Shown: positions 904-7,770 of the stretch, piece after piece
Layout of the letters: the number at the start of each line of letters is the position of its first letter
Numbering within the stretch: position 1 is the stretch's first letter
IMG/VR virus record: IMGVR_UViG_2648501165_000010
Source of the DNA: a virus
Lineage: Duplodnaviria > Heunggongvirae > Uroviricota > Caudoviricetes
Length of the DNA: 7,808 bases
Strand: one strand, 5' to 3'
Notes under the pieces: generated by a model
Databases searched by the model: none
Told to the model about the DNA's origin: nothing
Seen by the model: the letters and a program-made list of their open reading frames with translations, nothing else
Translations under genes and position numbers: made by a program

Positions 904-979
904 TGGACCACCACCGGGGACTCGAACCTCGCACACTCAACTTAAAGGGTTGACGCTCTTTCCTGATGGCTAGTGGCGG
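904..979 (-). tRNA. Atypical tRNA-like gene with encoded CCA; anticodon loop CCTTTAA (UUU with C33), weak D-arm; possibly degenerate
   Basis: Acceptor CCGCCAC/GTGGTGG pairs with one G-U, T-loop TTCGAGT, anticodon stem TCAAC/GTTGA, discriminator T then CCA. The D-stem does not pair canonically and one T-stem pair is A-C. Confidence 0.35.
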
Positions 980-1185: not shown

Positions 1186-1214
1186 AATATATGCCTTTCA
1201 ATCTACTTTTGCAA
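1186..1214 (-). promoter_or_regulatory. Candidate late promoter (pR'-like) overlapping the stop codon of the Q-like gene
   Basis: Minus strand reads TTGCAA, a 17-nt spacer, then TATATT, about 45-70 nt upstream of the terminator. This geometry matches lambdoid pR'/qut/tR' regions. Confidence 0.4.
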
Positions 1215-1887
1215 CACTTTGCTTTGAAAATGCCGCCTTTTGTTTTGAACGTGTTCTCATTACAAATAATAAAGCCTCACTATCCAGTCGGTGAAAAATG
1301 TGTTTCATTGCAACCCAGTGACGAGTAAATGTTTTGGACCAGTTTTTAGTTGTCACTCCCGCCAGTAATGCCAGCTCCTGATATTCATAACCTTCCCCAC
1401 CAAAAAGTTCTGCTTTTACTGCCTGCGCCGCCAGCCAGATTAATTTTTTCAGGCGTTCCTGCGTTTTCCCAGCAATTTTTCTGGTACCGGATTGAGTATT
1501 AAATTCATTCCACGCCCACTGTGTTATCGCGATCTGATATTCCCAACAAATACTCCCGCTGTAACACCACAACAACCAGGCTTTATGATGTTCTTCAAGA
1601 GACAGAACAGCCCGCCGCCACGATGATGTCGAAAACTCAACCGGACTGACCAGAGGAATTGACGTCACCTTCGCCAGCGATTGCTTTCCCGGGATTGGTG
1701 GATTATCCCGCGTTATCATTTTTCCAGTCACTTCATCGCGGTACCGGATTTTTTTTCGCCTGTAACGCCCTGTATCGAACATGGCATTCTCCTGCCAGGC
1801 TTCAAGCTGACCTTTTGTTGCCCCACTCAAATCAGCGGTGGCGATAATGAGCTGCTCACGCACAAACTGTAAATAGTGGTTATTCAT
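1198..1887 (-). CDS. Putative late-gene antiterminator, Q-family-like (229 aa), assigned mainly by position
   Basis: ORF directly downstream of rusA with an ATGA stop/start overlap and GGAG 6 nt upstream of the ATG at 1885-1887. It is followed by the promoter, terminator and tRNA cluster. The track's start at 1893 is a GTG two codons further upstream. No similarity to lambda Q was recognised. Confidence 0.5.
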   Translation of the reverse strand: MNNHYLQFVREQLIIATADLSGATKGQLEAWQENAMFDTGRYRRKKIRYRDEVTGKMITRDNPPIPGKQSLAKVTSIPLVSPVEFSTSSWRRAVLSLEEHHKAWLLWCYSGSICWEYQIAITQWAWNEFNTQSGTRKIAGKTQERLKKLIWLAAQAVKAELFGGEGYEYQELALLAGVTTKNWSKTFTRHWVAMKHIFHRLDSEALLFVMRTRSKQKAAFSKQSVAKVD

Positions 1888-2249
1888 GCGCACTCCAGTT
1901 CTGTGATTTTTATCCCCAGCCGCCCACCAGGAACGAGCTGACCGCGCACAATATTGATTTCATCAAACTGCTCGTCGTCTATGAGAAGTCCGGCATGCGT
2001 CAGCACATCCAGTGGTGCTTTCAGGATATTGTCCAGGTCACGACGGCGCTTATCCGGTGGCTCTGCAATAATCTTTATCACCAGCCTTCCGGACAGGTTT
2101 AATTTCAGCCGCTGCTGGCGAACAATTAGCGCCACATCACGGCGATAACGCTTTCCGGCTTCCGAGATGAAATACGTATTGCCATGACGTCGCCAGTAGG
2201 TATTCACCGTCGGCGGGTAAGGCAAAACAAATTCTATCCGTTCAGTCAT
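1884..2249 (-). CDS. rusA: Holliday-junction resolvase RusA (121 aa)
   Basis: MTERIEFVLPYPPTVNTYWRRHG...DKRRRDLDNILKAPLDVLTHAGLLIDDEQF...GGRLGIKITE matches the RusA family (catalytic D-x-D-N region) by recall. The start ATG abuts the stop of the upstream gene. Confidence 0.9.
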   Translation of the reverse strand: MTERIEFVLPYPPTVNTYWRRHGNTYFISEAGKRYRRDVALIVRQQRLKLNLSGRLVIKIIAEPPDKRRRDLDNILKAPLDVLTHAGLLIDDEQFDEINIVRGQLVPGGRLGIKITELECA

Positions 2250-2519
2250 TCATGCTTTCCACTTCAGGACACCCGAATTTCTCGCGTGCATTAAAAAACG
2301 AATCAGCAACAACAGCTGGCTGCCGTGTTTTTCTTCAAAATCTTTTACCCCGGCGTGCAGTTCGTTATGACATTTACGGCACAGCGGAATAACAAACAAA
2401 TCATCAGCCTTTGTTCCCATCCCTCCCAGTCCATGACCAATGATGTGATGCGGATCATCTGCCTGATTACCGCACGTCATGCATTTCTGCGTTTTTACCC
2501 AGCGCGTGTATACAGGCAT
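2250..2519 (-). CDS. Small Cys/His zinc-ribbon (HNH-like) protein, paralogous to the C-terminal module of the 2603-3505 gene; YbcO/DUF1364-like by recall
   Basis: MPVYTRWVKTQKCMTCGNQADDPHHIIGHGLGGMGTKADDLFVIPLCRKCHNELHAG... The open frame continues upstream to the gap at 2592 with homology to the ydfU-like internal region (VVSIAVDPESP versus VVSITVDPESP), so the true 5' end may lie in the gap. Confidence 0.5.
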   Translation of the reverse strand: MPVYTRWVKTQKCMTCGNQADDPHHIIGHGLGGMGTKADDLFVIPLCRKCHNELHAGVKDFEEKHGSQLLLLIRFLMHARNSGVLKWKA

Positions 2520-2592
2520 CTCTTCCCGTTGTGGTTTCTGGCGCTGGAGATACTGAGCCGGTGACTCCGGATCAACGGCAATGCTGACCACC

Positions 2593-2602
2593 NNNNNNNN
2601 NN
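2593..2602. other. Assembly gap (10 N) of unknown true length, between two paralogous zinc modules
   Basis: Run of n characters. The reading frame of the conserved domain changes across the gap. Confidence 0.95.
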
Positions 2603-3505
2603 TGCTTTTGTTCCCATTCCGCCCTGCCCGTGACCAATCAGATGATGCGGATCGTCGGCTGGCATACCGCAGCAAGCACACGGCTGTGTCTTAACCCAAC
2701 GTGTGTATTTCTCCTTAACCCAGCGGCGACGTTTAGGCAGCTTCATGAAAGATTCCGGAGACTCTGGATCAACGGTGATGCTTACCACCGTCTTTTCCTG
2801 TGGTGATTTTTGTTGCTGGTGGGCGTAAGGCAACGGTGCAAGATTTTTTGTGCGTTGTTTCAATATGCTGGTGGCGGTCTGCTCTCCCGGTACGATGTCG
2901 CTTTCGCGGTACACCGAGCAGATTTTTTCCGCTGGTAATCCCAGCGAACGACGCGATACAGCCTCAGGTAGTGCATCCACCACCTGATTGCAGACCGCCC
3001 ACCAGGATAATTCAGCCAAAGATAATTCCCGCTCCTGCGTACCGCTTATTGCGTGACGGATGACGTCAATCACCCATGCTGTCAGATTTTGTTGAGCAAG
3101 CAGCTCCAGTGATTCCGATGTCTGGTCACGCAGTTGGTTGTCGCAGTGCCAGCACAACACCATTGCGCCGGTACCATAACGGTGAATGACTGTTTCAGTG
3201 TGATGGTAATCGCCATTAGGCCACTGGCAGGATGTAACATGACGTAATAGCCAGTCGGACAATGCGCCAACGCCGCCAGCAGCACGAATCACCCGTTCGT
3301 TACTAAAAAACGGCAGCAATGTTTTGTCTTCCGCCAGCGGCTGGCGAACGGCAGGAACGACTCCGGATGGCAGATTACGCATGCTTTTTGGTTCCGGTTC
3401 CACCAGCACTCGAGGATTATGAAATATCTGTATGGATTCACGGCCCGGCTTAAGGACCACCAGCCCAAGCTCAGGCACCAGAACAGGTCTAAGTAATACC
3501 CGCAC
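2603..3505 (-). CDS. ydfU: YdfU-like DUF968 prophage protein, 3' end truncated by the gap
   Basis: Long open frame ending in ...WVKTQPCACCGMPADDPHHLIGHGQGGMGTKA at the gap. A GTG start at 3503-3505 with GGAGG just upstream would give about the 349-aa size I recall for K-12 YdfU. Alternative starts are GTG 3544 (track) and ATG 3385. Confidence 0.6.
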
Positions 3506-3506
3506 G

Positions 3507-3785
3507 TTACCTCCAGATCCGTTGCTGGAAAGTGCGGGACGCACGTGGTGGGCGTTCGGAATAAGGCAGCCTGACAGAGATTATCCAGTGCCGATAGTCG
3601 AGACTGAGAGCTTTCTTAACCTCGAACCCGCGCCTGCGGTAAGAATGAATCAGCCATTCGGCCTGTTCTGCAGTGCATGGAGGGTGCTGGAACCATTCAG
3701 ACTTGAATGCGTGAGAATACCGCCCGTGCGTGCAGGCAAGAACGGGCGAATTATCAGAATTGTAATATTTTGCGTTGCGTGCCAT
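3507..3785 (-). CDS. Hypothetical prophage protein (92 aa), no family recognised
   Basis: ATG with GGAG upstream; TAA stop one nucleotide before the proposed ydfU-like GTG; same orientation as its neighbours. Confidence 0.55.
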   Translation of the reverse strand: MARNAKYYNSDNSPVLACTHGRYSHAFKSEWFQHPPCTAEQAEWLIHSYRRRGFEVKKALSLDYRHWIISVRLPYSERPPRASRTFQQRIWR

Positions 3786-3851
3786 CGGTTTTCTCCGGTG
3801 GCACGGTGTTACTCAGCGGGAGTTCAGCCCCGCGCAAGATTGTAGATGAGT

Positions 3852-4103
3852 TTATTCTCCTGAAAAAGCAGAAAAGCCAGCTTTTATTCCGATCTCTTTC
3901 AATGCCTGTAATGAAGTGACAAACTCACCTTCGCGCAAGATAAATCCGTCCGTGACCCGAGCATCCACAAAATTAATTAACGCAGCCCCATTCTTTCGCA
4001 AACACATAATGCGGTAATGACTAACAAGATTTCCATTTTCAACGCACACAGCATAGAGGCCATCTTCACAAAAAATTTTACGCAGTTCTTCGATGTTCAT
4101 CAT
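3852..4103 (-). CDS. rem: Rem-like small prophage protein (83 aa)
   Basis: 83-aa ORF with GGAAGGA SD, at the position and size of K-12 Qin rem (between ydfU and hokD) as I recall it. Confidence 0.65.
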   Translation of the reverse strand: MMNIEELRKIFCEDGLYAVCVENGNLVSHYRIMCLRKNGAALINFVDARVTDGFILREGEFVTSLQALKEIGIKAGFSAFSGE

Positions 4104-4181
4104 CAGAATCCTTCCGGATAATTAGCTCTCCCCTTTAAGGGACCATCCCTCTTATCCCTGCGCGCTACTTAAGTATTTTTG

Positions 4182-4211
4182 ATTCTATTCCGGCGCCGTC
4201 CGGAACTTCAA
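4182..4211 (-). promoter_or_regulatory. Candidate rem promoter with a palindromic spacer (possible operator)
   Basis: Minus strand TTGAAG, 18-nt spacer, TAGAAT. The spacer 4188-4205 is the inverted repeat TTCCGG-N6-CCGGAA. Confidence 0.35.
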
Positions 4212-4225
4212 ACGCGTTGAAAATA

Positions 4226-4249
4226 AAAACAAAAACCCGCCGAAGCGGG
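4226..4249 (-). terminator. Intrinsic terminator ending the relB-relE-hokD transcript
   Basis: Minus strand CCCGC-TTCG-GCGGG followed by TTTTTGTTTTT, about 70 nt after the hokD stop. Confidence 0.7.
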
Positions 4250-4319
4250 TTAAGTGCGGGTGCGTTGAGGATGCCTGACACATCAGAGGTGGCGAGGGAT
4301 TTCTCCCCCGCCGGGTCTC

Positions 4320-4475
4320 TTACTCCTCAGGTTCGTAAGCTGTGAAGACAGCGACCTCCGTCTGGCCGGTTCGGATTCGTACCTCGCAGAGGTCTTTCCT
4401 CGTTACCAGTGCCGTCACAATGACGGTTAAACAGATGACGATCAGAGCGATTAATATCGCCTTTTGCTGCTTCAT
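4320..4475 (-). CDS. hokD: Hok-family membrane toxin HokD (RelF), 51 aa
   Basis: Translation MKQQKAILIALIVICLTVIVTALVTRKDLCEVRIRTGQTEVAVFTAYEPEE with AGGAGAAG SD. The six-frame track misses it because it lists only the antisense ORF. Confidence 0.9.
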   Translation of the reverse strand: MKQQKAILIALIVICLTVIVTALVTRKDLCEVRIRTGQTEVAVFTAYEPEE

Positions 4476-4546
4476 AGCCTGCTTCTCCTGTCAACGCAAA
4501 GCAGAAGTGTCACCTTCGGTGCGAAACAGAGATGTCATGCTTTGGT

Positions 4547-4834
4547 TCAGAGAATGCGTTTGACCGCCTCGCTATATACTTCCGAGCGTTCTCTTTTCCC
4601 AACAGAAATCACGAAAACGACAACTTTCTCGTCTATAACCTGGTATACAAGGCGATAGCCTGAAGACCGGAGCTTAATCTTGTAACAATCAGGCATACCA
4701 CGGAGCTTGTTTGCTTCAATCCGGGGTGACTCAAGTACTTCAACCAGCTTCTTTTTCAACTGTTCACGTACCGTCGAGCCCAGCTTTCGCCATTCCTTTA
4801 GTGCCCGCTCGTCAAAATCCAGAAAATACGCCAT
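4547..4834 (-). CDS. relE: mRNA interferase toxin RelE (95 aa)
   Basis: MAYFLDFDERALKEWRKLG...VISVGKRERSEVYSEAVKRIL is essentially the K-12 RelE sequence by recall. The start overlaps the relB stop. Confidence 0.95.
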   Translation of the reverse strand: MAYFLDFDERALKEWRKLGSTVREQLKKKLVEVLESPRIEANKLRGMPDCYKIKLRSSGYRLVYQVIDEKVVVFVISVGKRERSEVYSEAVKRIL

Positions 4835-5073
4835 CAGAGTTCATCCAGCGTCACACGTACTGGCTTAGGATTACGAAGCCGTTCTTTCACTATCTCCACA
4901 AGTTCAGCATCTTCATCACTCAGGAGTGTCTGTTTGAACGGCAAGCGTTCATTGTCAGCGATATACTCGAGCATGAGACGAAGCGCTTCAGAAGGAGTTA
5001 CACCCATTTTTTCAAGCGCGGCGTAAGAACGCGCTTTAAGTTCATCGTCAATACGCAGGTTAATGCTACCCAT
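4834..5073 (-). CDS. relB: Antitoxin RelB (79 aa)
   Basis: MGSINLRIDDELKARSYA...RNPKPVRVTLDEL matches K-12 RelB by recall. Confidence 0.95.
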   Translation of the reverse strand: MGSINLRIDDELKARSYAALEKMGVTPSEALRLMLEYIADNERLPFKQTLLSDEDAELVEIVKERLRNPKPVRVTLDEL

Positions 5074-5084
5074 GTCTTACACCT

Positions 5085-5137
5085 CTTGTAATTACAAATG
5101 TCATTACAAGTATCGCACTACAACATGCTTAGGGCAA
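5085..5137 (-). promoter_or_regulatory. relBE promoter and relO-type palindromic operator
   Basis: Minus strand TTGCCC, 17-nt spacer, GATACT, followed by the near-palindrome CTTGTAATGACATTTGTAATTACAAG (5085-5110), AGAGGTG SD, and the relB ATG. Confidence 0.7.
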
Positions 5138-5403
5138 GTCACGAAGGAAGTCAGAAAGTAGTCGTAAGAACGGTGATCACTGTCCGCTTTGTGCCAGGAG
5201 CAGCCATTGCTAAGTCCATCCTGTATTGTGCAGGTCAGCTCGTTTTTAAAGAGTCCGGCCATCATCTTACTGGTACAGACACCATATACTTTGTGACGGT
5301 CAGGCTACATATGCACAACTCAACTTATTCATCTATTTTTTGCTTTAGCATGTCAGTGTTGCTTTCTCGTCGGCGGGTGAGCGGTGACCTGACCTGTCGA
5401 TAA
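5098..5403 (+). CDS. ydfV: YdfV-like ORF (101 aa), doubtful as a real gene
   Basis: Position and length match the ydfV ORF annotated in K-12 Qin as I recall it. The ATG lies inside the relO palindrome and has no SD. Confidence 0.3.
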   Translation: MSLQVSHYNMLRASHEGSQKVVVRTVITVRFVPGAAIAKSILYCAGQLVFKESGHHLTGTDTIYFVTVRLHMHNSTYSSIFCFSMSVLLSRRRVSGDLTCR

Positions 5404-5555
5404 AGGAACGTAACACGTTTTATGCAACACCCGCATGCGGCAGAAAATTATTGCCGAACGTTTACCCCTGTCAACAAGCTTTACTTTCTGAGGCGCGCCA
5501 GCCCGCGAGGAAAACAATCTGAACATCAAACAATTAATGACACAAGAAATACGAT

Positions 5556-5582
5556 TAAAGATTTTTTTGTGCATGCCGATAG
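5556..5582 (+). promoter_or_regulatory. Sigma-28 (FliA) class-3 flagellar promoter for flxA
   Basis: TAAAGATT, 11-nt spacer, GCCGATAG against the consensus TAAAGTTT-N11-GCCGATAA, 24 nt upstream of the flxA ATG. Confidence 0.7.
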
Positions 5583-5605
5583 TGCTTTTTTAAAAGGAGA
5601 AATCT

Positions 5606-5938
5606 ATGTCTGTCACAATTCAGGGAAATACCTCAACCGTTATTTCAAACAACTCCGCCCCGGAAGGAACATCAGAAATAGCCAAAATCACAAGACAAAT
5701 TCAGGTGCTGACTGAAAAGCTTGGGAAAATCTCATCGGAAGAGGGGATGACGACACAGCAGAAAAAAGAAATGGCTGCATTGGTACAGAAGCAAATTGAA
5801 AGCCTCTGGGCTCAACTGGAGCAGTTGTTAAGGCAGCAGGCAGAGAAAAAGAATGAAGACGCGACAGTTCAGCCTGATAAAAAAGAAGAGAAAAAAGACG
5901 ATACAAATACCGCTGGCACCATTGATATTTACGTCTAA
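5606..5938 (+). CDS. flxA: FlxA (110 aa), FliA-regulated prophage protein
   Basis: MSVTIQGNTSTVISNNSAPEG...TAGTIDIYV with AAGGAG SD matches K-12 FlxA by recall. The middle is coiled-coil-like and the tail is charged (KKEEKKDD). Confidence 0.9.
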   Translation: MSVTIQGNTSTVISNNSAPEGTSEIAKITRQIQVLTEKLGKISSEEGMTTQQKKEMAALVQKQIESLWAQLEQLLRQQAEKKNEDATVQPDKKEEKKDDTNTAGTIDIYV

Positions 5939-5952
5939 GTGACAGCCGTATT

Positions 5953-5977
5953 GTGGCCCTCATCGGGCCACTTTTCG
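5953..5977 (+). terminator. Intrinsic terminator after flxA
   Basis: GTGGCCC-TCATC-GGGCCAC followed by TTTTCG. Confidence 0.6.
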
Positions 5978-6254
5978 CCATCAGCCTTTTCTTTAAAGAC
6001 ATATTATCTTTGTATCATTTCTGATAGTTAACATTACAAGATATAAGTAATGGACGCACTCCCAATTAGTCTATTTAAATCGCCACGAGTTTAACTGACA
6101 ACCCATGATCAATTATGAATTGCAACTATTTCTGTAGTCACTTTTGTGGGGACAGTCCACAAAACTGCCAACTTCCGCTTCTTGCTCTTAGCGGACATTA
6201 GCATAGGCTATTTACCATAACGCCTCATTACGCGCACCGCCCAGACTGACTCAG

Positions 6255-6320
6255 CGCGTTTCTGGCATATCCCCGGTAAAACAAGTAACAAACCACCCGA
6301 AAATGAACACCAGAAACGCG
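6255..6320. repeat. 11-bp perfect inverted repeat (CGCGTTTCTGG / CCAGAAACGCG) separated by 44 bp, about 55 bp beyond the transposase stop
   Basis: Direct reading of 6255-6265 against 6310-6320. Confidence 0.6.
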
Positions 6321-6329
6321 ACTTAAGAA

Positions 6330-7770
6330 TCTACCCTATGAATGGATATGCACTCAACCGAATCGATCTTGGTTTCAATCTTTTTTATCGGGATCAGGCT
6401 TCTTTTTAGGTAACTTCGGGGGCTTAACTTGCTGATGACTTTGCGTTCGGCGCGTAAGCCAGGGATGGTCAGCTTTAGGTTTAACATAGTATTTTGAGCG
6501 TAAATCAATACGGGCATTATCCACTCGTTCATGGACACTCTTTTCATCATCCAGTGGTATAGGCTCCGGGCCATCAACATACTTTTCCCAGCCCGGCGCT
6601 TTCCCGTCATACAGAACGTTAATTTCACCGTCAAAGTTCTCGCATACAGTAACAACCGAATGCCTAAGTCGATATCCCCGGCCCTCACTGCGTACCTGAA
6701 ACGCACTGCTTTTGTACTGGAAAGTGAGATTTTTAGACAGAACGCGCTTCGCCTGTAGGCTGAAGATATAACCCAGTTCCTCTTCAGAATGGTGCACATC
6801 AAGATGAGCATTATCAGTAGTACGAGGCGACGTAGCGAACCGGTTGTTATAGGCTTCAATAAAGGTCGGCAACCATGCATTTGCTGTTTCAATATCACTG
6901 ATATTCTGAAGCCGCATTTCTTTGACCAGCCTGTCCTGTAGTGTCTGATTGGCGCGCTCTACCCGCCCTTTTGCCTGCGGGCTGTTGGCATGGATTGGCT
7001 CGATGCCCAGTGTCTTTATCGCACGAGTGAACTGGGTCAGCTCACCTTCCCGCTCTGGGTTATTTACCCTGAATATACTGTGTCTATCAGAGTAGAGAGC
7101 GAGCGGTACGCCATGATCATTAAGGTAACCCCGGAGGGTTTCCATGTAAGCCCGGGTTGTTTCAGCAGGCACAAAACGCAACGCCATCAACGCACTGGTG
7201 GCATCATCAATGAAAACGATCAGTGTACATCTGGGGCCTCGATTTTCAAACCAGTCATGAGGTGAGCCATCAATCTGGATCAGTTCACCGTAAGATGGTC
7301 GTCGCATGCGGCGTTGATATATACGGGCAATTTTACGACGGCGTTCACGCCATAACCCCTCTTCTATCATCCACTTTCTGAGAGTTTCAACGGATAAAGA
7401 TAAACCGTGTATCTCGCGCAATTTTTCGCACGCAAACGTAGGTCCAAAATCAGCGTAACGGCCTTTGAGGAGTGAAATTACTGTTGCTCTGAATTCAGTA
7501 GAAAAGGAATTATTAGGACGCTTTCCACGTCGGTGGGAAACCAGACCAGAAGGCCCTTCATTTCTATACCGTTGCACCAGACGTTTAACCTGCCGAATAG
7601 AAATGCCAATGCGTGCCGCAGCTTGTTCCTGAATAATCTGAAGTCGGTGGAGTTCCTTATGACTCATCGTAACAGTCTCTTTGATCATGAAAAATCCCCC
7701 AGAGAATTGTCTGGGGACATTTTAGAATGGTTCAAAGGGGACATTACAGCTTGGTGTTAACAATAGCCTG
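6330..7770 (-). mobile_element. IS-like element carrying the transposase; ends not resolved
   Basis: Transposase gene present, but no terminal inverted repeats could be matched between the left and right flanks inside the window. Confidence 0.25.
6375..7688 (-). CDS. DDE-type transposase/integrase (437 aa), N-terminal HTH plus rve-like core; IS481/ISNCY-like, family unresolved
   Basis: N-terminus IGISIRQVKRLVQRY looks like a helix-turn-helix. Candidate DDE residues are in QIDGSPHDW, LYSDRHSIF and SPQAKGRVERANQTL. The SD GGGGGA lies inside a 6-bp hairpin (CCCCAG/CTGGGG, 7697-7716). Confidence 0.85.
   Translation of the reverse strand: MIKETVTMSHKELHRLQIIQEQAAARIGISIRQVKRLVQRYRNEGPSGLVSHRRGKRPNNSFSTEFRATVISLLKGRYADFGPTFACEKLREIHGLSLSVETLRKWMIEEGLWRERRRKIARIYQRRMRRPSYGELIQIDGSPHDWFENRGPRCTLIVFIDDATSALMALRFVPAETTRAYMETLRGYLNDHGVPLALYSDRHSIFRVNNPEREGELTQFTRAIKTLGIEPIHANSPQAKGRVERANQTLQDRLVKEMRLQNISDIETANAWLPTFIEAYNNRFATSPRTTDNAHLDVHHSEEELGYIFSLQAKRVLSKNLTFQYKSSAFQVRSEGRGYRLRHSVVTVCENFDGEINVLYDGKAPGWEKYVDGPEPIPLDDEKSVHERVDNARIDLRSKYYVKPKADHPWLTRRTQSHQQVKPPKLPKKKPDPDKKD

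Follow-up and report, generated by a model that had tools for sequence, protein, structure and literature searches.

The closest described relatives of the gene analysed here are the members of PHROG 1212, among them STM1021.1n of Gifsy-2, mEp237_051, phiES15_017, PY54 ORF47, N15 Orf QD1 and the RefSeq protein WP_012304870.1, with which it shares the full 66-residue core, a position in the nin region and stop/Shine-Dalgarno coupling to the next gene. It differs from these relatives in an extra 26-residue N-terminal leader, and from most of them in having no DUF1367 gene upstream and in being followed by a DUF968 gene where NinG, YbcO or RusA is found elsewhere. A positional analogue is NinF of lambda and P22 (PF05810), a protein of about 60 aa encoded in the nin region directly before ninG (the Rap/NinG nuclease). 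The 92-codon product has no sequence relationship to NinF, as the ORF returned no Pfam match at E up to 1, and because Erwinia phage Eho59 carries both genes, NinF and PHROG 1212 are distinct. NinG, DUF968 and DUF1364/YbcO are His-Me-finger nucleases with a presumed role in recombination (PMC5714182).

The gene lies in a Caudoviricetes record of IMG/VR (IMGVR_UViG_2648501165_000010), and the whole 7,808-nt stretch of DNA that we analysed is called the window. We read it as a small protein gene of the lambdoid nin recombination segment that is translationally coupled to a junction-nuclease gene, an explanation whose chances we consider evenly balanced. As a database object the gene is already known, both as PHROG 1212 and as a RefSeq hypothetical protein; what is mildly new is confined to its omission from the curated K-12 record, the regular DUF1367, small-protein and nuclease cassette, and the derived leader of the Qin type.

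Reading frame and coding status

The original prediction described a 92-aa gene with a credible ribosome-binding site and a TAA stop one nucleotide before the GTG start of a ydfU-like gene. This description of the sequence is accurate: the coordinates, the stop and the GTG start were all found as stated, GGAG at 3796..3793 lies 7 nt before the ATG, and the GGAGG that precedes the GTG falls inside the last two codons of the small gene. The features at and around the junction are as follows.

2603..3505, minus strand: ydfU-like DUF968 gene (His-Me finger nuclease family), Pfam DUF968 E 6.1e-51, 3' end cut by an N gap
3432-3845, plus strand: antisense 137-aa ORF that spans the entire small gene
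3503..3505, minus strand: GTG start of ydfU (DUF968), separated from the TAA by a single nucleotide (3506)
3507..3509, minus strand: TAA stop of the 92-codon gene, kept in 163/163 loci
3510..3514, minus strand: GGAGG within the two closing sense codons TGG AGG (Trp91-Arg92), the Shine-Dalgarno of ydfU
3510..3707, minus strand: 66-residue core, codons 27-92, the PHROG 1212 domain, with predicted beta-alpha-beta-beta fold and basic C-terminal tail
3708..3785, minus strand: N-terminal leader of 26 codons, restricted to the Escherichia (Qin-type) version and opening with the start codon (3785..3783)
3785..3507, minus strand: 92-codon ORF, with ATG at 3785..3783, 92 sense codons and TAA at 3509..3507
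3793..3796, minus strand: GGAG resembling a Shine-Dalgarno, 7 nt 5' of the ATG of the 92-codon gene, read from the sequence
3797..3851, minus strand: intergenic spacer after rem, with a mosaic boundary at about 3797-3800, where Escherichia inter-clade homology stops (alignment with locus L002)
3839..3866, minus strand: weak sigma-70-like promoter match TTTTCA-16-TACAAT, 9/12 by consensus scan alone, overlapping the 3' end of rem
3852..4103, minus strand: rem, upstream of the 92-codon gene in the same orientation, annotated by PGAP and in K-12, phrog_340

The ORF ends in ATC TGG AGG TAA C GTG, and at its start the motif GAGAnAACCG-ATG is common to both Escherichia clades in the alignment. No in-frame ATG, GTG or TTG occurs from codon 2 to the core, so the ATG at 3785 is needed for translation of the core. 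The sigma-70-like match, a product of consensus scanning, is no evidence of function.

The window is rich in spurious ORFs of 90-137 aa, so that ORF length by itself is no evidence of coding. IMG/VR, phage records and K-12 together supplied 163 Escherichia-type loci, representing 44 distinct nucleotide alleles in two clades with about 76% protein identity, and the 92-codon frame and its ATG are intact in every one of them. Among the Escherichia alleles, dN/dS by the Nei-Gojobori method is 0.11 for core codons 27-92 in the ORF frame, 3.1 and 1.8 for the same bases in the two shifted frames, and about 0.74 for leader codons 2-26 in all three frames; the leader is highly variable, with in-frame two-codon indels and few semi-conserved positions. 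By these ratios the core is under strong purifying selection and the leader is loosely constrained. Comparison of alleles thus shows that the 92-codon ORF is a genuine protein-coding gene, in which the 66-residue core is strongly constrained and the leader before it only loosely. A lack of conservation in related prophages, or codon statistics typical of non-coding sequence, had been named as grounds for dropping the gene, and we found the opposite in the conserved frame and in a core dN/dS of 0.11 against 1.8-3.1 in the shifted frames. The antisense 137-aa ORF was considered as a gene and rejected, because a dN/dS of 1.13 in its own frame marks it as a shadow ORF.

Family membership and distribution

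The view that the gene is an orphan of no recognisable family does not survive comparison with the databases. Residues 27-92 match phrog_1212 over profile positions 1-66 of 66 (E 1.7e-35, 121.9 bits), a full-length HMM match that places the 92-codon product in PHROG 1212; PGAP calls the ORF in K-12 assemblies as WP_012304870.1, 'hypothetical protein'; and a word-indexed profile search found at least 527 clusters at 90% identity, all from Enterobacterales, all labelled 'hypothetical' and none with a Pfam domain. In an alignment of 11 members from 9 genera the invariant residues are W31, F32, T38, A42, L45, Y49, D63, L73 and W91 (window numbering), all of them present here, and core identity among genera is 36-50%. 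Searches of phage records by tblastn recovered full-length 92-aa copies in Escherichia phages only, and in other genera 66-aa homologues with 37-48% identity. The latter occur in phages and prophages of Salmonella, Klebsiella, Citrobacter, Enterobacter and Kluyvera and also of Yersinia, Edwardsiella, Hafnia and Erwinia, including Gifsy-2, mEp237, phiES15, PY54 and GF-2 as well as phages of Klebsiella, Hafnia, Erwinia and Citrobacter.

An exhaustive HMMER search of 1.84 billion representatives returned 105 clusters at 50% identity, nearly all of them stand-alone proteins of 65-69 aa. Apparent domain fusions among the longer matches were rejected as frameshift or assembly chimeras or low-complexity repeats. 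One Salmonella protein (P0121, 96 aa) has an internal tandem duplication of the beta1-alpha1 segment, in which HHHDCTTEQADTLISDYQKRG occurs twice, and which may be either genuine or produced by the assembly; in P0279, a frameshift fusion, the small gene is read into the overlapping upstream ydfU frame. Within E. coli, megablast with the ORF alone found close alleles in at least 2391 of 5426 complete genomes, and a 501-nt query that included the flanks matched 4320 of the 5426.

Genomic context

We surveyed the context of the gene in one genome for each of 45 Enterobacteriaceae species. The gene directly upstream encodes DUF1367, which the Eho59 record calls NinB-like on the basis of HHpred, in 43 of the 45; directly downstream lies NinG in 24, YbcO/DUF1364, usually followed by RusA, in 10, RusA in 7, DUF968 in 2, and a gene with no match to the reference set in the other 2. 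The Q antiterminator comes after the gene downstream of the PHROG 1212 member. The same gene order is seen in Gifsy-2, mEp237, phiES15, GF-2, Chris1 and Klebsiella phages, and in PY54 the PHROG 1212 member comes after an RdgC-like 'recombination associated protein'. Because DUF1367 lies upstream, because NinG, YbcO, RusA or DUF968 and then Q lie downstream, and because these nucleases are of recombination type, the PHROG 1212 gene is part of the nin (NinR-type) recombination segment in the early-right operon, outside any moron or accessory region. The 'prophage accessory region' to which it had been assigned is instead a conserved recombination segment just before Q.

In the canonical order (L003 2396-3204 and loci L254-L298) the DUF1367 stop lies about 5 nt before the ATG of the small gene (gcggggTGAtggcgATG), so that the three genes, for DUF1367, the small protein and the nuclease, follow one another in a tightly abutted chain. 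DinI is often found somewhat further upstream of this chain.

The Qin-type arrangement in the window is derived, in that it has no DUF1367 gene and the upstream position is taken by hokD and rem or by another ORF. Rem is upstream in part of the Escherichia loci only and in almost none of the other lineages, and DUF968 is downstream in 162/162 evaluable Escherichia loci. The association with DUF968 genes that the original prediction proposed to examine is therefore real in Escherichia but does not extend to the family, in which DUF968 is the neighbour in 2/45 genomes as against the constant DUF1367 in 43/45. Because homology between the Escherichia clades begins only about 15 nt before the ATG, the ribosome-binding site, leader, core and ydfU move as one mosaic block. 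An origin of the leader from the 3' end of the lost DUF1367 gene was rejected, since the leader resembles DUF1367 3' ends in neither nucleotide nor peptide sequence. Literature searches on the RefSeq accession and on DUF1367 returned nothing relevant.

Coupling to the downstream gene

The junction TGG-AGG-TAA-C-GTG is invariant in 163/163 Escherichia loci, and other lineages have TGG-GGG-TGA-nn-ATG (or GTG) before NinG, YbcO or RusA. From these conserved junctions it follows that the C-terminal Trp-Arg/Gly codons of the family double as the Shine-Dalgarno of the next gene. The start codon thus lies 1 nt past the stop with its Shine-Dalgarno within the upstream ORF, and analogous geometry recurs in the 45 species genomes. 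Coupled pairs of phage early operons likewise have a stop-start distance of 1-2 nt, a Shine-Dalgarno in the last sense codons and a conserved arrangement; the present case differs from them in that coupling is inferred from the sequence, the downstream start is GTG and the Shine-Dalgarno spacing is a short 4 nt. The co-translation with ydfU that had been proposed agrees with this stop/start geometry and with its recurrence across the family, and the 92-codon gene and ydfU are very probably translated in a coupled way.

PY54 retains the C-terminal Trp although its next gene starts 48 nt downstream and is uncoupled, so coupling is not the sole reason for conservation of this residue. In the 45 genomes, variants of the C-terminal tail do not track the type of nuclease downstream, which speaks against a complex dedicated to one nuclease, of the kind an immunity protein forms. 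The ydfU start at GTG 3505 is supported by PGAP, the curated K-12 record and the alignment start of phrog_96. An alternative start at GTG 3544, the furthest upstream in frame and giving a 349-aa ORF, was rejected, as the extension (3506-3544) would run over 38 nt of the small gene in another frame and both the annotations and phrog_96 favour 3505.

Predicted structure

In an AlphaFold2 model of the full-length product, pLDDT stays below 50 over residues 1-23 and is about 90 over residues 28-75, and the 26-residue leader is predicted to be disordered. The core modelled alone (mean pLDDT 84.9) consists of beta(2-7), alpha(13-26), beta(29-34) and beta(41-49), followed by a lower-confidence tail with a short C-terminal helix. 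With a pI of 10.2 and a net charge of +9, of which the last 17 residues account for +4, the 92-codon product has a basic charge compatible with nucleic-acid binding; across the family the tail is conserved and rich in Arg, Pro and Trp, and its charge ranges from +1 to +7. The invariant residues look like a structural core, and a metal site is unlikely because the His34/Cys37 pair is lost in distant members.

The general beta-alpha-beta-beta(-alpha) topology is shared with R3H, KH, ACT, PII and VOC-type domains, but the matches to these are insignificant (Foldseek E at least 0.15; Pfam sub-threshold). The homology search recommended in the original prediction, with profiles and with Foldseek on a predicted structure, was thus productive in revealing the PHROG 1212 family and unproductive as to fold. 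Against the PDB, neither AlphaFold model had a Foldseek match at E <= 0.001 (best E 0.15), the top matches being an RNA ligase subdomain, R3H, PlyG CBD, ACT, PII, KH and EscJ, all generic small alpha/beta structures, and a PDB sequence profile search gave nothing relevant; against BFVD the sole match was N15 Orf QD1 (E 7.8e-4), which is also uncharacterised. Membership of the R3H family finds no support, as the R-x3-H motif is absent from the conserved columns and Foldseek E values to 1ug8, 2lrr and 1msz are 0.2-0.9.

Possible function and alternative explanations

Our explanation as a coupled gene of the nin segment would run as follows. The PHROG 1212 gene of lambdoid Enterobacteriaceae phages and prophages would encode a small basic protein (pI about 10) from a canonical slot after NinB-like DUF1367 and before a junction nuclease (NinG, YbcO plus RusA, RusA or DUF968), which is then followed by Q. 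In the Qin-type Escherichia version DUF1367 would have been lost, a disordered and loosely constrained 26-residue leader would supply the start codon, and the ribosome-binding site, leader, core and ydfU would travel as a mosaic block behind rem. The last two codons (TGG-AGG or TGG-GGG) together with the stop would provide the nuclease gene with its site of ribosome binding and re-initiation. The protein itself may be an accessory factor of the phage recombination or junction-processing module, with the basic surface and tail binding nucleic acid or a partner, and in a K-12 lysogen the unit would be held silent by Rho-dependent termination between rem and ydfU.

The observed parts of this explanation are that the gene is coding, that it belongs to the family, that its position is conserved, and the geometry of the junction. 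To these an accessory DNA-binding or adaptor role in recombination adds a tentative element, one we take seriously while giving it distinctly less than an even chance; the adjacency to recombination genes may reflect synteny of the conserved nin order and not shared function. Narrower and more doubtful is the proposal that PHROG 1212 is a hitherto unrecognised third NinR component, a small basic protein that binds DNA or serves as an adaptor, in concert with the NinB-like DUF1367 mediator and the nuclease of the next slot. If that were true, the protein might for example direct its partners to branched or single-stranded intermediates, and the Qin prophage of K-12 would carry an intact, purifying-selected and unannotated copy. 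The practical value of the gene is modest, and it is an ordinary conserved hypothetical phage gene; its family nonetheless marks a regular three-gene cassette of enterobacterial lambdoid phages (NinB-like DUF1367, small protein, junction nuclease), which offers a handle on poorly understood NinR recombination functions and on the DUF968/YbcO nucleases.

Exclusion or defence functions had been suggested for the gene, and the small protein and YdfU might in that case form a defence, exclusion or toxin-antitoxin-like pair that protects the lysogen or acts as an addiction module. The Qin-type neighbourhood is indeed rich in toxin genes (hokD, relBE), YdfU has an HNH-type nuclease domain, and the ORF is labelled 'toxin to Rem' in one phage record (ON470583), a label without literature support. 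Nevertheless, PADLOC-DB v2 yields no family for the ORF or for Rem and only a chance-level PglZ match for YdfU (E 0.061); outside Escherichia the gene lies between DUF1367 and NinG/YbcO/RusA, away from morons; its partners fill the slot of known recombination nucleases; and the operon is a lytic early operon upstream of Q that is Rho-silenced in the lysogen. A type II toxin-antitoxin system in particular finds no support in scans of the ORF against Pfam, NCBIfam and PADLOC, all without a match, or in any conserved pairing with Rem. We regard such a pair as quite improbable: the place in the nin segment, the absence of PADLOC matches and the recombination-type His-Me-finger nuclease partners all tell against the suggestion, and one candidate can be struck from lists of possible defence loci. 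Tight coupling to the nuclease gene over three nuclease families, in a small protein with a conserved tail, could also be explained by an inhibitor or chaperone that restrains or delivers the downstream His-Me-finger nuclease and is made in matched amounts by coupled translation. This too seems improbable, as the nuclease type changes without a matching change in tail or core subtype and the same tails precede NinG, YbcO and RusA, RusA is no His-Me-finger enzyme, the PY54 member has no recognisable nuclease next to it, and the protein is basic whereas nuclease inhibitors that mimic DNA are usually acidic.

The location of the downstream Shine-Dalgarno inside the last codons, the stop-start spacing of 1-2 nt and the nearly neutral N-terminal 26 codons would suit a pure leader ORF, in which translation alone matters, bringing ribosomes to a poorly initiating ydfU GTG, and the peptide has no function. 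We give this very little credence in view of the core dN/dS of 0.11, the cross-genus identity of 36-50% with nine invariant residues, the confidently predicted fold, and PY54, which keeps the C-terminal Trp and the fold with its next gene 48 nt downstream and no coupling. A different kind of function would be expected of a single-module relative of the glyoxalase/bleomycin-resistance (VOC) fold, acting as a dimer that binds a small molecule or metal; this name is borne by one metagenomic record (P0188), the predicted beta-alpha-beta-beta arrangement makes up most of one VOC module, and 27/73 members weakly match PF00903, always over one beta-alpha-beta stretch at profile positions 65-113. Every one of these matches is, however, sub-threshold (15.6 bits at best, with the cutoff at 20.6), the window protein has none, no VOC structure is among the top matches of Foldseek or of the PDB profile search, the single-chain model lacks a fourth strand and a paired second module, and there are no family-wide conserved metal ligands. 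The PF00903 matches are a resemblance at the level of pattern and not of membership, which we reject on the sub-threshold scores, the single beta-alpha-beta stretch and the lack of structural support, and a VOC-type function is accordingly very improbable. That the ORF is a chance frame and no gene might be argued from the curated K-12 reference, which leaves it unannotated, and from the spurious ORFs of similar length that are common in the window; it is refuted by the comparative data, namely the dN/dS contrast among frames, the 163 intact frames and the homologues in at least 10 genera, and retains virtually no probability.

State in E. coli K-12

In NC_000913.3 nothing is annotated between ydfU (b1560) and rem (b1561), yet this 346-nt 'intergenic' gap holds the intact 92-codon gene under purifying selection, its ATG falling by our computation at NC_000913.3:1644584, and the curated K-12 annotation can be corrected at this point. 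The terminator upstream of ydfU is among the strongest Rho-dependent terminators in E. coli, and supplementary microarray data for rho/nusG mutants show rem unchanged and ydfU up by log2 1.4-2.8 (PMC9160355). Because rem is unchanged and ydfU is up in these mutants, the Rho block lies at or around the 92-codon ORF, which suggests that the ORF is poorly translated in uninduced K-12. Silencing by Rho agrees with a gene of a lytic operon that is kept off in the lysogen, and is a poor fit for a defence function expressed by the lysogen. A literature search found no paper reporting expression or translation of the 92-codon ORF.

Origin of the window and neighbouring genes

Positions 2603-6559 of the window share 99.8% identity with Qin, a cryptic prophage of E. 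coli K-12 MG1655, and have the Qin-like gene order flxA, ydfV, relBE, hokD, rem, 92-codon ORF, ydfU. The identity ends at a 10-N gap (2593-2602) that breaks the 3' end of ydfU, and to the left of it (1-2592) lies different prophage DNA with a DUF968 C-terminal fragment, rusA, the Q antiterminator and tRNA genes. Because the frame reads across the N gap, the final 40 or so residues of the listed 'ydfU' ORF are an artefact. Further N runs lie at 578-652, 780-789 and 1011-1020. The remaining features of the window are these.

816-890 and 904-979, minus strand: tRNA-Arg(tct) and tRNA-Lys(ttt), downstream of Q and beside masked N runs
1198-1893, minus strand: Q antiterminator
1884-2249, minus strand: rusA
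2250-2681, minus strand: second DUF968 C-terminal fragment
4234-4251, minus strand: terminator-like hairpin followed by a T run, between hokD and rem
6375-7688, minus strand: intact 437-aa gene with HTH and rve_3 (DDE transposase/integrase-type) domains

Rem matched the model of the SocB toxin only negligibly (14.9 bits, where the cutoff is 210). At the gathering threshold, Rfam identified one tRNA in the window and no other RNA family, with none at hokD. The tRNA pair resembles tRNA clusters downstream of Q in Escherichia and Klebsiella phage records. At the other end, identity with K-12 stops at 6559, within the 437-aa gene, whose C-terminal 49 or so codons equal K-12 'ydfW'; for this reason the K-12 'genes' ydfW and ydfX look like remnants of the 437-aa gene, which is intact in the strain from which the window comes.
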